From Squalus acanthias (lineage: Eukaryota): 64,000 nucleotides of DNA. The position numbers and the translations under genes were made by a program. A model generated the notes under the pieces. It was given only the letters and a program-made list of their open reading frames with translations, was not told the DNA's origin and searched no databases. Positions 459-5,392 of the stretch are shown here, piece after piece (position 1 is the stretch's first letter; every line of letters starts with the position of its first letter). The stretch covers positions 108,626,001 to 108,690,000 of the forward strand of contig CM059431.1 of the NCBI GenBank assembly GCA_030390025.1, read 5' to 3'.

Positions 459-551
459 TGTGAAGGAATAAGCCATATAACCTATTCAGAAAAATACCCC
501 GCCTGATCCGGGGTAGCCCTAAAGGGGCTAGGACTAGTAAAAATCCCTTCA
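459..551 (+). repeat. 5' LTR, internally deleted (93 bp)
   Basis: 459-497 matches 3238-3276 and 501-551 matches 4314-4363; about 1037 bp of the LTR middle is missing. Confidence 0.92.
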
Positions 552-553
552 GT

Positions 554-571
554 TGGTGACCAATGTGTGTG
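554..571 (+). promoter_or_regulatory. Primer-binding site, decayed tRNA-Lys1,2 type
   Basis: TGGTGACCAATGTG lies 2 nt after the LTR CA. It matches the foamy Lys1,2 PBS TGGCGCCCAACGTG at 11/14, and two of the three mismatches are CpG>TpG. Confidence 0.75.
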
Positions 572-811
572 TTAACGAGTTGATACAGAAGCCTATACTT
601 ATAATTATATCTTTATCCATCTCGTAGATTGTTAAGTATAGAAGGAGTATTTTACTGACAGTGGTACTAAGACCCAGATTTAAGTCTCTAGAGACGACAA
701 GTCCCTGATCAGGCCTTGTAGAACTTAAATCAGAACACCCTCAATATACCATTGAGGTCTAGAAATTTCTTATAAATTTCATATTAAATCCTAAGGTTAG
801 GTCCTGACGAA

Positions 812-2852
812 ATGGCAAACCCTGTCGGAATTGGCCAAGTCTTTTTATTAGGAAATTCAAACGATTGCTACCATCAAGTCATTTACTCTGATGGATCATC
901 AATGATGATTAAAAAAGGGACATCCCAACAATCCTCAGCTGGGATGGGGATAGTAGTAGGGACTTTGAGATTCCTATTCTTTTTATCCAGAAGAATTACT
1001 GTCCATACCCCTTGGCCATAAGACAGTGCAATATGCTGAAGCCGCAGCACTACGGTATGCTTTTAGAAAAGGCAGACCCTATTAAACCCACATTAATCTG
1101 TACAGATAGTGACTATTGTAAAAGAGGATATAACCAAGATCTAGTTTTCTGGGAACAAACAAACTTTACCAATCATAAGGGTAAACACATAAAACATAAG
1201 TCATTGTGGGAAGACATTCTCCATTCGAGGATGGAGAAACAGAATTGTCAGGTGATTCCTGTAAATGGGCATACCACTGGGACAGTACACTCAAAAGGAA
1301 ACAGTCTTGCAGACGAACAAGCGAAATGTTCGGCCTGTCTGACACCCCCTCAAGAGGGGCCTGCCAATATTAGTGTTATCACTAGGGCAGAACGGGCAGC
1401 TAATCAGGATGAGGAACTGATTCAGCTATTAGACCCAACAAAAGAGAATCCACCAGGATATCCATCAAAGTACTTTTACTCAGAAACCCCTACCGGTATT
1501 GTGCTAGTTAAGTTGCCCAAGGGAAACCAAGAGGTACCCCCGAGATACAAACGAGAACAGCTTGTAAAAGAAGCTCACAAAGGCATAAGTCAAGCACATT
1601 GTGGTGCCAGAACAACATTCTGCAAATTGACTCCCTTATATTGGTGGCCAGGCATGCTTAAGGCCTGTAAAATATATGTGGCAAATTGTGAGCCATGCAA
1701 TTTAACCAATAAGTCATCACTAATTAAGCCACCACCATTGGCTCCTGTGAAAGCTGATGAACCAATGGGAAAATTCTTTATTGACTTTATTGGACCACTT
1801 CCCCCATCTTTGGGATACAGACATGTTCTCGTTTGTGTAGATGGATGCACTTCCTTCTGCTGGCTGGTCCCCACAAAAACTATTTCGGAAAACGCACTCG
1901 CCAATGCTATTACTGACATAATTACTGTAGCTGGTGCACCTAAAATCTTACACTCCATTAAAGGTGGAGTCTTTGTCTCCAAGGTCTTCAAAGACTACTG
2001 CGAACAAAGGGGGATTGGGTTAGAGCACAGCACGCCACATCATCCACAATCAGCGGGGCTGGTGGAACGTAAAAACCAGGAAATAAAAAAGCTATTGGTC
2101 AAACTGTTGAGAATCAGAGGAAATAAGTGGATCACCATCATTTTGGAGGTGCAGCTAACACTTAATAATGTGCCCGCATCTGCATCAGGGACAGTGTCCC
2201 CTAAAACTCCATATTATCTAATGTATGGGGTTGAGATGCATACACCGCTTACCCATGGTTCTTTTATTGCCTCTACACTCTCTGATTCCTTGACCCGACA
2301 GCGAGTTAGATTTAAAAAAAGATGTAACAGAGGAGATACATCAAATTGATCAGAGGATAAGCGAGACAAATAGGCAGAAAAAAATTGACAAACAAAGCAT
2401 GGCAACCCCTAGCAGGAGAATGGGTACAGGAAAAGAAGTTCAAGCAAAAACTTGGTTTAAGACCTAAGTGGAAAAAACCTGTTCAAATACGTTCTGCGAT
2501 TAACGAGAGAACTGTTAAAATACATATTAATCATCCGAATGGCAAGCATATTCTTAAAACTGTCTCCATAGACAATCTCAAAAGATGTCCTGCAGGATTC
2601 CGAAATGGAGGAACAATACAAGGTGCAGTCGTATACTGTCTTCCAAGACCCAGCTTGGAGCACGACACAAGAAATGGATGCAATCGAACTACTGACGACG
2701 GTCAGCCAGACAGTGTCGCCGACTCCTCCACACGATGCCTGGCAATGCCACAGCAATTGGATTCGCAAAAAGCCACAACCAAAACAATTAAAGACCAGCA
2801 AGTTACTTCAACGAAGGAGGAAAACACTGCGGATGGAGAAGGAATCAGCTGA
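812..2852 (+). pseudogene. pol: Foamy-like pol remnant: RNase H plus integrase (NED, HHCC, core, CTD), about four frameshifts
   Basis: RNase H motifs YSDGS..SAGMGIV, SIPLGHKTVQYAEAAAL (frame from 1002), TDSDY and GNSLAD. Integrase motifs GYPSKY, AH..H..YWWP..CEPC, KFFIDFIGPLPPS, HPQSAGLVERKNQEIK, LRPKW and TVSIDNLK. All parallel PFV Pol. The second catalytic Asp is lost (HSIKG versus HSDQG). Confidence 0.92.
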
Positions 2853-2871
2853 GCTTCTGGCAAGGCCTTGA
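2605..2871 (+). pseudogene. Probable env leader start (or orphan accessory ORF), truncated
   Basis: The ATG lies within the AAT-GGA (N-G) codons just after IDNLK of integrase, the overlap position recalled for foamy env. No SU/TM motifs follow. Confidence 0.4.
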
Positions 2872-3225
2872 CGAAAACAAGAATCTGTCCTCACGCTGGA
2901 TCAATGGAACAGTGTGTCAAGCTTCAGCCAGCTCCAAATGACGTCTTCTTGACTTGTATGACTAACTCACCTCTACGGAACGTACATCTGTCAATTGGAC
3001 ATTTTAATTACATGTTGTTTCGCTAATTGCATGACAATGTACCTATCATTCTTTTAATTTGTGTTCAATTTAAAATAAGGCAAAACATTGTCCTGGGATG
3101 ACTTAAAGGAATTTTCATGTAGCACATGATTGGGCTCTTGTGAATCTCGTGAAATTAATGTACTATTGTAACCTTATTTGTAACATTGACCAAACTCTGC
3201 CCTGATGCTCGAGCTCATCTTTTGG

Positions 3226-3237
3226 TCAAGAGGGGTG
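3226..3237 (+). promoter_or_regulatory. 3' polypurine tract
   Basis: TCAAGAGGGGTG immediately precedes the 3' LTR TG. Confidence 0.8.
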
Positions 3238-4363
3238 TGTGAAGGAATAAGCCATATAACTTATTCAGAAAAATACACTATCTTATGAAAAAATTCTGGC
3301 CTTATTAAAACATGACAAACTGGGTTTGGAAATTTAGAAACCTAACTATGAAATAGCTATGAAAGCATTCTGGCTATTGAGATAAGACAGTTATTGACCC
3401 TGAATAAATAACCTTATTGAAACAGAAGGTGAAGGGCTCAGACAAACTGACCTTTTGGGAACAAAACAATGGTTCACCCTGGATAAGGTGTTCTTCGTAA
3501 AGATAGCACATAAGATAAGGAACATCTGCCCTCGTAAAGATGACATAAAGTAAGGAACACCTGCCATCACACCGTTTTATATGGTAAACTTAGAACACCT
3601 AGAGATGAGACAAGATTCTGGCTGAGGTGGCAGTAAGAGTTGCAGAGGTTGGCAGAAAAATGACTAGAGATAATTAGTTTGCATCAGCAGAATACCTTAA
3701 AGGAAATACCACTGGAAAAGGGTATAAATATTGAACTCTCAAATGGGATAACAGACTCGCTTTAATCGGGTAAAGCGATTCTTGGCTTCGGAGGCGGCTC
3801 TGTAGTCTACCACCTTTTGTACCTCAGGGATCAAAGGTATTTGATATTAATGGATATCCTGTATAGAGAACTTTAAGAACTGTAATACTGTAGTGAAGTT
3901 AAGATTTAAAAGAAAGATTCTCTGTTAAAAAGATAGTACGTTTTCTCTTTTTAGAATTGTTAATGTTGCGATTGACTGATTCACCAACTGTAAATTGCAT
4001 GTCGGTTCTTTAATAAATCTATATATTTTTAGAATTGTCTTACAAGTCATCTGTATCAAAAACTCGCAAACTCAATCTCTGTACACTTTTTGGTGGAGAG
4101 TTGCAGAATTCTGGGGGAGTTTTCCAGACCCTCATAATATCCGGAACGTTACAGTCTAGCTAAACTTATTAAAAGCATTATCTGGAGGACGGTAACATTC
4201 TCGGGTTGTTCCTTTCCTTTAGGGAGAGATGGCCCGGACCTTTAGACCCAATTAAGCGTCTTTAGGATTTGGCTACCTCAAACTTTAGTTGAAAGTGAAC
4301 GTCTGAGAAATACGCCTGATCCGGGGTAGCCCTAAAGGGGCTAGGACTAGTAAAAATCCCTCA
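3238..4363 (+). repeat. 3' LTR, full length (1126 bp)
   Basis: TG...CA ends. TATAAATA at 3723, AATAAA at 4012, and a ~35-bp tandem repeat in U3 (3496-3565). Confidence 0.92.
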
Positions 4364-4871
4364 ACTCCAGTCCCACACCAGCGTGCAGTTTATAACGGGT
4401 GACTGATCTACTATTGGTTGTTTTGCATCCTCGCTGAAGTTGAATTTCTCCCACAGATATATTTAGGTTTTCAACAAATTGACCAGACCCAGCTTCCCCA
4501 AAGCACAGCTCTCTGCTTCCCCTCACCCCAAAGTGCTGCTATTTCTTTCCCCCATTCCCAAAACGCTGATGCTGGTATCTTCCCTCTTTTTTCCCCCCCT
4601 GCACAAAAGTGCTGCTCTTACCCTGACCCTCCCCGAAGACTGTTGCTCGATTCCTTCTCCTGAGCACTGCCCCTGAGCTCTTCCCCGATGGCACTGCCGC
4701 TGTGATTGACGATGCCGGAAACTGAATGGGAATCGCTGAGCTCATGGAATTCCCATCCACAGTTCACAGCATCATCAAACGCAGCTGGATAGCCAGCAGG
4801 TAGGAGCTTGGGAGCAGCGTTAAGGGGAAGGATCTGGTCTGCACTGAATTTGGTTGGCAAGCATAGATAGG

Positions 4872-5392
4872 GTCTCTTTCGAGGCACTAGAGAGGGTGCA
4901 GAGAAGATTTACAAGGATGATACCAGAAATGCAAGGGTATACAGATCAGGAAAGGATGAACAGGCTGGGTCTCTTTTCTCTTGAAAAAAGAAGGCTGAGG
5001 GGTGACCTAATAGAGGTCTATAAAATTATGAAAGGTTTTGATAGAGTGGATACAGAGAATGTTTCCACTTGTTGGGAAGAGCATAACTGGAGGCCATCAA
5101 TATAAGATAGTCACCAAGAAATCCAATAGGAAATTCAGAAGAACTTCTTTACCCAGAGAGTGGTGAGAATGTGGAACTCGTTACCACAGGGAGTGGTTGA
5201 AGCAAATAGTATAGATGCATTTAAGGGGAGGTTGGACAAGCATATGAGGGTAAGGGAATAGAGGGTTACGCCGATAGATATAGATGAGGAAAGACGGGAG
5301 GAGGCTCGAGTGGAGCATAAACGCCGGCATGGACTGGTTGGGCCAAATGGCCAGTTTCTGTGCCGTATATCCTATGTAATCTTATGTAATCT
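4872..5392 (+). mobile_element. CR1 LINE 3' fragment
   Basis: ALERVQRRFTRMIP..RLGLFSLEKRRLRGDLIEVYKI, followed by a 3' UTR with a TATGTAATC repeat tail. Confidence 0.9.

Follow-up and report, generated by a model that had tools for sequence, protein, structure and literature searches.

We use comparisons between genomic copies to study a short endogenous retrovirus (ERV) in a 64,000-nucleotide (nt) stretch of the Squalus acanthias genome (NCBI GenBank assembly GCA_030390025.1, contig CM059431.1, positions 108,626,001 to 108,690,000 of the forward strand). This stretch is referred to below as the window, and all coordinates are window positions on its forward (+) strand. The element is related to foamy viruses, and most of its gag, its protease, its reverse transcriptase (RT) and its env are missing. 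We are highly confident that it belongs to a real, amplified and helper-dependent deletion family of a foamy-like ERV. For the part of pol that every amplified class retains, RNase H and integrase, we tentatively favor retention as a translated block needed in cis.

Between its two long terminal repeats (LTRs) the element has 2,686 nt (552-3237), of which 1.98 kb are pol, in agreement with the ~2.7 kb and ~2 kb given in a first, sequence-only reading of the window. A genome search with this interval returned 873 first-look candidates, and of the 40 that were scored, 20 matched over its whole length at 91-100%. The 5' deletion joins the start of gag to RNase H at junction J1a (868/869) and removes ~3.4 kb of gag, protease and RT, a loss measured from spacings in long copies. 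We find J1a at 69 loci and a second junction, J1b, at 82, with zero control matches; the counts include some duplicates and miss mismatched copies. Most of these loci (145 of 151) sit on contigs C1-C28. Relative to J1a, J1b has ~58 nt of extra gag and 21 nt less RNase H, and so neither can have come from the other by additional deletion. Among 86 junctions listed from a gapped search, 32 have the J1a length (three of them J1a/J1b hybrids, all on unplaced scaffolds), 40 have the J1b length and 10 are small variants, and a +6 variant occurs four times, on four chromosomes. The J1b joint is also present in contigs from sequencing runs that carry the labels organism C and organism D.

The insertions are independent. 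Target-site duplications (TSDs) can be read in 13 of 20 copies (L002-L021) and all 13 are different, 11 of them perfect and 2 with one mismatch, while the LTR pairs of the 10 copies measured diverge by 2.4-4.5%. The proposal of the sequence-only reading that loci with different TSDs would have the same breakpoints is thus borne out, and with it, given the gag-pol relatives described next, the proposal of a natural helper-dependent family, most likely mobilized in trans. Splicing was considered as the cause of the deletions and rejected: donor and acceptor letters are absent at the joints and microhomology is present.

The copies form four size classes: env-bearing, long env-less, a class with 993 nt deleted from gag, and short. 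The middle of env is matched at 6 loci only, and env-bearing copies are ~91% alike in integrase and 77-80% in the 3' region. Elsewhere env was removed by two deletions, one of ~1,724 nt near 2880 and one of ~1,410 nt near 2914, and the same joints are found in 28 of the 30 loci L001-L030, both long and short; env loss is therefore not a feature of the mini-element. It came first, in a lineage still dependent on Pol, and is no evidence for a packaging signal. The deletion pattern put forward from the window alone, with breaks at ~860 and within 2650-3200, stands in part: gag, protease, RT and env are all absent, and the 5' break lies at 868/869, in frame, whereas env went by two deletions that leave an island of 33-36 nt and are common to the long copies.

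The long env-less copies retain gag, protease and RT, and the border between RT and RNase H is intact at 204 loci. Mean distances within and between the long and short classes are 4.1-5.4%, and their RNase H-integrase regions are ~95% alike. Of 20 informative non-CpG sites, 14-17 have alleles common to long and short copies, and all four gametes are seen in 158 of 190 site pairs (CpG sites and the misaligned homopolymer at 2308-2318 were excluded from these counts and from the selection counts below). One locus, L019, combines the J1b junction with two LTRs of the long-copy type (90 vs 73%), a mosaic that points to recombination before integration. The U3 part of the LTR has at least three variants across L002-L030, and each short subfamily is matched by long copies with a similar variant. 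Two points weigh against this interpretation: mosaic alleles could also arise by gene conversion after insertion, and trees of four segments are star-like and poorly resolved and do not recover the order of the classes.

Although capsid, protease and RT are absent from the short copies, their LTR pairs are fresh and they have TSDs, and for this reason we infer that they depended on other copies for proteins supplied in trans. Because env is found at so few loci, the cycle was probably intracellular, and the helper was probably an env-less gag-pol relative copying inside cells; the earlier expectation of a helper holds insofar as related gag-pol copies exist, and an infectious virus is probably not the form it took. 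The label of satellite, also part of that expectation, does not fit. A strict satellite nucleic acid has little sequence in common with its helper, and this element is a deletion derivative made wholly of helper sequence. Prototype foamy virus (PFV) retrotransposes inside cells in culture, and feline foamy virus does not do so efficiently (PMC3185757, PMC3705263).

A sequence of events that would produce these copies begins with the entry of a foamy-like retrovirus into the germ line and the loss of env, with gag and pol retained to the pol stop. The lineage would thereafter have spread as a retrotransposon, probably inside cells. At least two template jumps during reverse transcription would then have cut out most of gag, protease and RT and fused the gag start in frame to RNase H. 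The short RNAs, unable to copy themselves, would have been packaged with Gag and Pol of long env-less copies, would have recombined with long RNAs and would have integrated at 150-200 places; packaging in trans, recombination and integration on this scale we consider very likely. The RNase H-integrase block would have been kept as a translated block required in cis, where an open frame might stabilize the RNA or yield a Gag-tip/RNase H/integrase protein with an action on the RNA that encodes it, and foamy-type RNA elements in the block may act jointly with translation.

Judged by its sequence, the element is a foamy-like ERV related to the Spumaretrovirinae. The best solved relative is the integrase of PFV (E 1e-68), and the next non-foamy match has E 7e-13. 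The Spuma_A9PTase domain is detected in long copies, Gag_FV_central in 3 of the 8 long-copy frames scanned, and Foamy_virus_ENV has 11 matches, in copies ~91% like the window copy across integrase. Copies also have both a 4-nt TSD and a GGG-TG border where the polypurine tract (PPT) meets the LTR, two features that serve as criteria for foamy-like ERVs (PMC5210030).

Which regions were retained can be seen from the number of candidates returned by 166-nt probes (first-look counts, loose and unpaired between regions). At the 5' side they fall from 424 for the leader (700-865) to 219 for gag just beyond J1b, 179 for capsid and 147 for RT. They then rise to 445 for RNase H, 465 for the integrase core and 472 for the integrase C-terminus, and around env they are 412 for the env stump, 6 for mid-env and 453 for the post-env remnant. 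With such numbers an amplified class that lacks 3' pol could hardly be accommodated; as the sequence-only reading required, 3' pol has not been lost as often as other parts. Among 20 J1a loci picked by their 5' junction only, the block is uninterrupted at 12, has insertions at 2 and has private internal deletions at 2; deletions reach the end of the 3' LTR at 2, and the remaining 2 loci pass into host repeats. None of the 20 has a PPT and 3' LTR without RNase H-integrase in the 1.85 kb fetched for each, and no amplified internal trimming of the retained pol block was seen in the copies examined.

The placement and frame of the junctions are what lead us, tentatively, to a translated block needed in cis. 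The gag start codon is in frame with RNase H at both J1a and J1b, the frame is preserved across 80 of 86 junction spans, and the gag start reads into RNase H in 15 of 21 short copies. The 993-nt deletion inside gag is likewise in frame, and three such events have a chance of 0.037. At their right ends J1a and J1b are separated by 21 nt, at the point where RNase H begins (a uniform model gives this a chance of 0.02), and J1b ends exactly at the first RNase H catalytic motif; the Pfam RNase H match in natural J1b frames covers profile positions 6-138 and 9-139 of 141, almost the full domain. A role in cis for RNase H-integrase protein is plausible since PFV integrase protein is itself required for Pol packaging (PMC3705302).

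Disruptions of the frame are mostly private. In an alignment of 40 copies that includes 13 further J1b copies and 7 long copies (L017, a duplicate of L016, and L023, which is interrupted, are omitted), 50 of 59 indels are singletons and most shared ones lie in single-letter runs, and the common frameshifts that the earlier reading proposed to look for across loci are not shared by descent; stops found in at least three copies are mostly at CpG or Trp codons. The common exception is a 2-nt frameshift near 966 (945-995), at the loop of a predicted hairpin, which occurs at 46 loci. By class it is found in 7 of 69 J1a loci, 11 of 82 J1b loci and 10 of 100 long loci listed (p 0.69; 18 of the 46 are unassigned), and a comparison of 13 carriers with 39 other copies finds no linkage to seven neighboring sites. 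It is a recurrent hot spot and not an inherited break. An inherited break here would have suggested that the frame is dispensable, and a count over the first 100 of 182 rows (9 of 33 short vs 4 of 67 other copies) had pointed that way until the full lists overturned it. Every class has the deletion at a rate of roughly one copy in nine. Reverse-transcriptase slippage and processing of a DNA hairpin are candidate causes; deletions at CpG sites are not in general excess (8 vs 6.3 expected). The frame was open in the replicating pool.

The pattern of substitutions bears on the same question. Variants present in at least three of 20 J1a copies are 11 non-synonymous and 16 synonymous, and private variants are 314 and 109 (p 0.0005; from a further set of 20 loci, 8 interrupted or truncated ones were omitted from the selection count). 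Several observations weigh against reading this as selection on the short copies, and against a cis role for translation more generally. Once alleles also present in the 7 long copies are dropped, the shared counts become 8 and 7 (p 0.08), and the same removal across all short copies gives 16 and 9 (p 0.36), such that the purifying signal may be inherited from helpers; the test of selection across copies gives a difference between shared and private variants that shrinks with the removal of long-copy alleles. The argument from frame is itself weak because there are only two or three independent founder deletions. Gag and RNase H share an imperfect repeat, alike at 11 of 17 letters, within which J1b and the +6 variant both fall; the repeat could have set the position and frame of the two without selection. 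The retained pol block also equals, in size and place, a foamy RNA signal that we turn to now. Three further checks gave little: a protein database search with the natural fusion frame gave 0 matches among 1,092 candidates of lengths 199-634 only, the sequencing runs listed as holders of the sequence included none of RNA, and a single-sequence fold prediction for the Gag-tip/RNase H piece was uninformative (predicted local distance difference test, pLDDT, of 30).

In PFV, packaging involves a cis-acting sequence (CAS) that extends to 200 nt into gag (CAS-I) and a second, CAS-II, which covers ~1.8-2 kb in the 3' part of pol and was afterwards cut down to 1.2 kb (PMC5035957, PMC3185757). Could 3' pol have been kept solely as such an RNA signal, for packaging of the genome or of Pol, with the open frame a coincidence? 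We consider this less likely than a translated block, though it accounts directly for a block of CAS-II size and position, for RNase H and integrase candidates as numerous as those of the leader and far more numerous than those of RT, and for the absence, among the 20 J1a loci followed, of any that keep the 3' end without the block. Where PFV has its central PPT, the homologous position here holds an 11-nt purine run (2428-2438), and no local fold in the retained pol is stronger than a series of hairpins predicted where RNase H meets integrase (1300-1450; mean z -4.1). But an RNA signal alone does not predict that three of three deletions should be in frame or that the block should end at a protein boundary, and the suggestion in the sequence-only reading of an RNA signal rather than protein leaves both unexplained. 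CAS-II is marked by a perfect central copy of the 3' PPT (PMC5035957; motif PMC4070436). No such copy of the family's own 3' PPT is present in the retained pol of the copies compared, the purine run included, and predicted folding is not enriched there (z falls below -2 in 5 of 35 windows of kept pol and in 7 of 65 of the region that was deleted). Amplified trimming of the block was not seen in the copies examined even though PFV CAS-II can be reduced to 1.2 kb. Finally, gag and pol are in one frame in long copies, and RNA-borne packaging of Pol may therefore be unneeded.

Some further RNA features of the block deserve mention. Four hairpins are predicted within 1300-1450 (z -3.9 in L002), one of them, in most copies, with a palindromic loop that could serve for dimerization. 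A candidate central PPT at 1350, a 10-nt match to the 3' PPT that 23 of 2000 shuffles reach, was rejected since it is present in only 3 of 28 copies and is explained by CpG decay. The leader has a folding z of -0.5.

An RNA element and translation could also operate together. Here a CAS-II-like RNA element would be combined with a translated Gag-tip/RNase H/integrase fusion in a natural foamy 'vector' that arose at least two times in one lineage of cartilaginous fish, and the fusion protein would bind its own RNA and recruit helper Pol or Gag by integrase contacts. We regard this fuller account as doubtful. If it were true, a foamy cis need for 3' pol would predate the split between cartilaginous and bony vertebrates, and the converging breakpoints would mark the 5' border of the cis-required 3' pol; the earlier proposal that CAS-II is ancient is not established by the family.

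A further explanation dispenses with any cis need: a deletion hot spot at the imperfect repeat and luck among founders would have set the junctions, everything downstream would have ridden along, and the short RNAs would have spread through small size with their leader and PPT retained. The env stump (412) and post-env remnant (453) are indeed kept as often as pol, J1b does lie in the repeat, and the independent founders are few. Yet J1a, with a microhomology of 1 nt only, is not nested with J1b and still ends within 21 nt of it; shorter families, expected to copy at least equally well, have little room in the probe counts; and the chance of three in-frame events counts here as well. We consider this explanation rather improbable. 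Decay of a single provirus after insertion, or spread of copies by segmental duplication, is refuted for the family as a whole by different TSDs in every readable copy, different flanks and a distribution over many chromosomes, even if some loci are duplicates (L016 and L017 share flanks, and there are junction clusters on unplaced scaffolds) and the collapse of the 5' LTR in the window is private decay.

We now consider the window copy itself. The provirus occupies 459-4363 and is flanked by the same 4 nt on each side (455-458 and 4364-4367), as read from the sequence. The 5' TSD is inside an abundant host repeat (200-458 and 4364-4440 around the provirus), which we take to be of the short or long interspersed element (SINE/LINE) type; fragments resembling LINE RT lie downstream, at ~4850-5100. 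The 5' LTR is a 93-nt remnant (459-551) in which ~39 nt from the start of the LTR are fused to ~52 nt from its end, with the collapse point at a short repeat common to both LTR ends. This collapse is absent from the other short copies L002-L021, and because of it the window copy is dead. The 3' LTR has 1,126 nt (3238-4363).

Inside the LTRs, a CpG-decayed primer-binding site (554-571, with variants compared across copies) is presumably of the tRNA-Lys1,2 type. PFV is primed by tRNA Lys1,2 (PMC5035957). The leader (572-811) and the gag start together form the CAS-I equivalent; the gag start codon and the first 19 codons (812-868) run on as gag in long copies. Beyond J1a, pol starts at 869, just 5' of the first catalytic motif in RNase H, and ends at the stop position most frequent among copies, 2850-2852 (13 of the 31 that were read). 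Pfam detects RNase H (PF00075, 869-1335), frameshifted in the window copy at the hot spot near 966, and the integrase zinc-binding, core and SH3 domains (1400-2600), disrupted there by private indels. The start of env overlaps the pol tail (2608-2880), the first env deletion following the pol stop by ~28 nt. After it come the env island (2881-2914), whose joints have microhomology and no splice signals, a post-env remnant (2915-3225) that is 77-80% like the 3' region of env-bearing copies, and the 3' PPT (3226-3237), which borders the LTR.

The long copies show an additional detail at the border of gag and pol, which lies near 1435 in L041-L050: the two genes are in one frame, and in the first 100 of 191 loci listed the border codon is a stop in 69 and a sense codon in 31. 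A second amplified defective class (L042 and L050 are examples) has the 993-nt in-frame deletion in the capsid region and whole pol. Of 40 probe matches, 21 loci could be paired and 14 of these belong to the class; the sense codon is present in 9 of the 14 (p 0.003). A predicted fold (z -2.8) takes in the border together with the sequence immediately 3' of it, and no Met was seen between the border and the protease motif in the copies inspected. This arrangement suggests read-through, or a division of labor between copies, unlike mammalian foamy viruses. PFV tolerates an in-frame Gag-Pol (PMC3196705).

The family amounts to a natural deletion mapping, in which hundreds of copies in four size classes show what a foamy-like genome can be deprived of and still be copied. 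It makes a question testable from genomes, namely whether the foamy cis need for 3' pol is ancient and whether it lies in RNA, in translation or in both. In two respects it departs from mammalian foamy viruses: this foamy-like lineage amplified to more than 400 copies almost without env, and its gag and pol share a reading frame.

How does this family compare with known systems? We found no amplified non-autonomous deletion family of foamy-like ERVs described in the literature searched, which included few subscription journals and passages from PMC5210030, PMC5512871 and PMC10699275 (their supplements may list one). The shark family resembles the fish and shark foamy-like ERVs of those papers in its foamy-like Pol, 4-nt TSD, GGG-TG border and Lys-type primer site, and is set apart from them by long copies with Pfam-detectable foamy Gag and Env. 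In the layout of its parts it resembles PFV vectors, with a leader and gag start, ~2 kb of 3' pol, a PPT, LTRs and proteins supplied in trans; such vectors carry CAS-I, CAS-II and CAS-III (PMC5035957, PMC3185757, PMC3705302). The vectors, as described there, inactivate the gag start, which in the shark family is intact and in frame. The family further differs from PFV in that it is without a perfect central PPT copy, has a probable helper without env and has gag and pol in one frame where PFV has a separate spliced pol.

More broadly, mice are well known to harbor ERV deletion families that depend on helpers. Short LTR elements spread by a longer helper include the pairs ETn/MusD, VL30/murine leukemia virus (MLV) and MaLR/ERV-L (PMC6466679). 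MaLR has hardly any retroviral coding sequence left, or none (PMC6466679). The shark family, unlike MaLR, ETn and VL30, keeps a whole RNase H-integrase frame. In ETn and VL30, too, such coding sequence is scant or absent. The known system nearest to the shark family is the mouse intracisternal A-particle (IAP) element 1-delta-1, an in-frame gag-pol deletion fusion whose proteins are supplied in trans and whose fusion acts in cis (PMC6466679, PMC7411935). As far as those accounts describe it, IAP 1-delta-1 has an env-less parent, an in-frame internal gag-pol deletion, Gag and Pol in trans and strong amplification in common with the shark family. The shark family is foamy-like where IAP is beta-like, has only 19-38 gag codons left and has lost protease and RT wholly. 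It also has at least two converging junctions, and the cis role of the fusion, shown in IAP, would in the shark family be the counterpart suggested by the frame and placement of those junctions.

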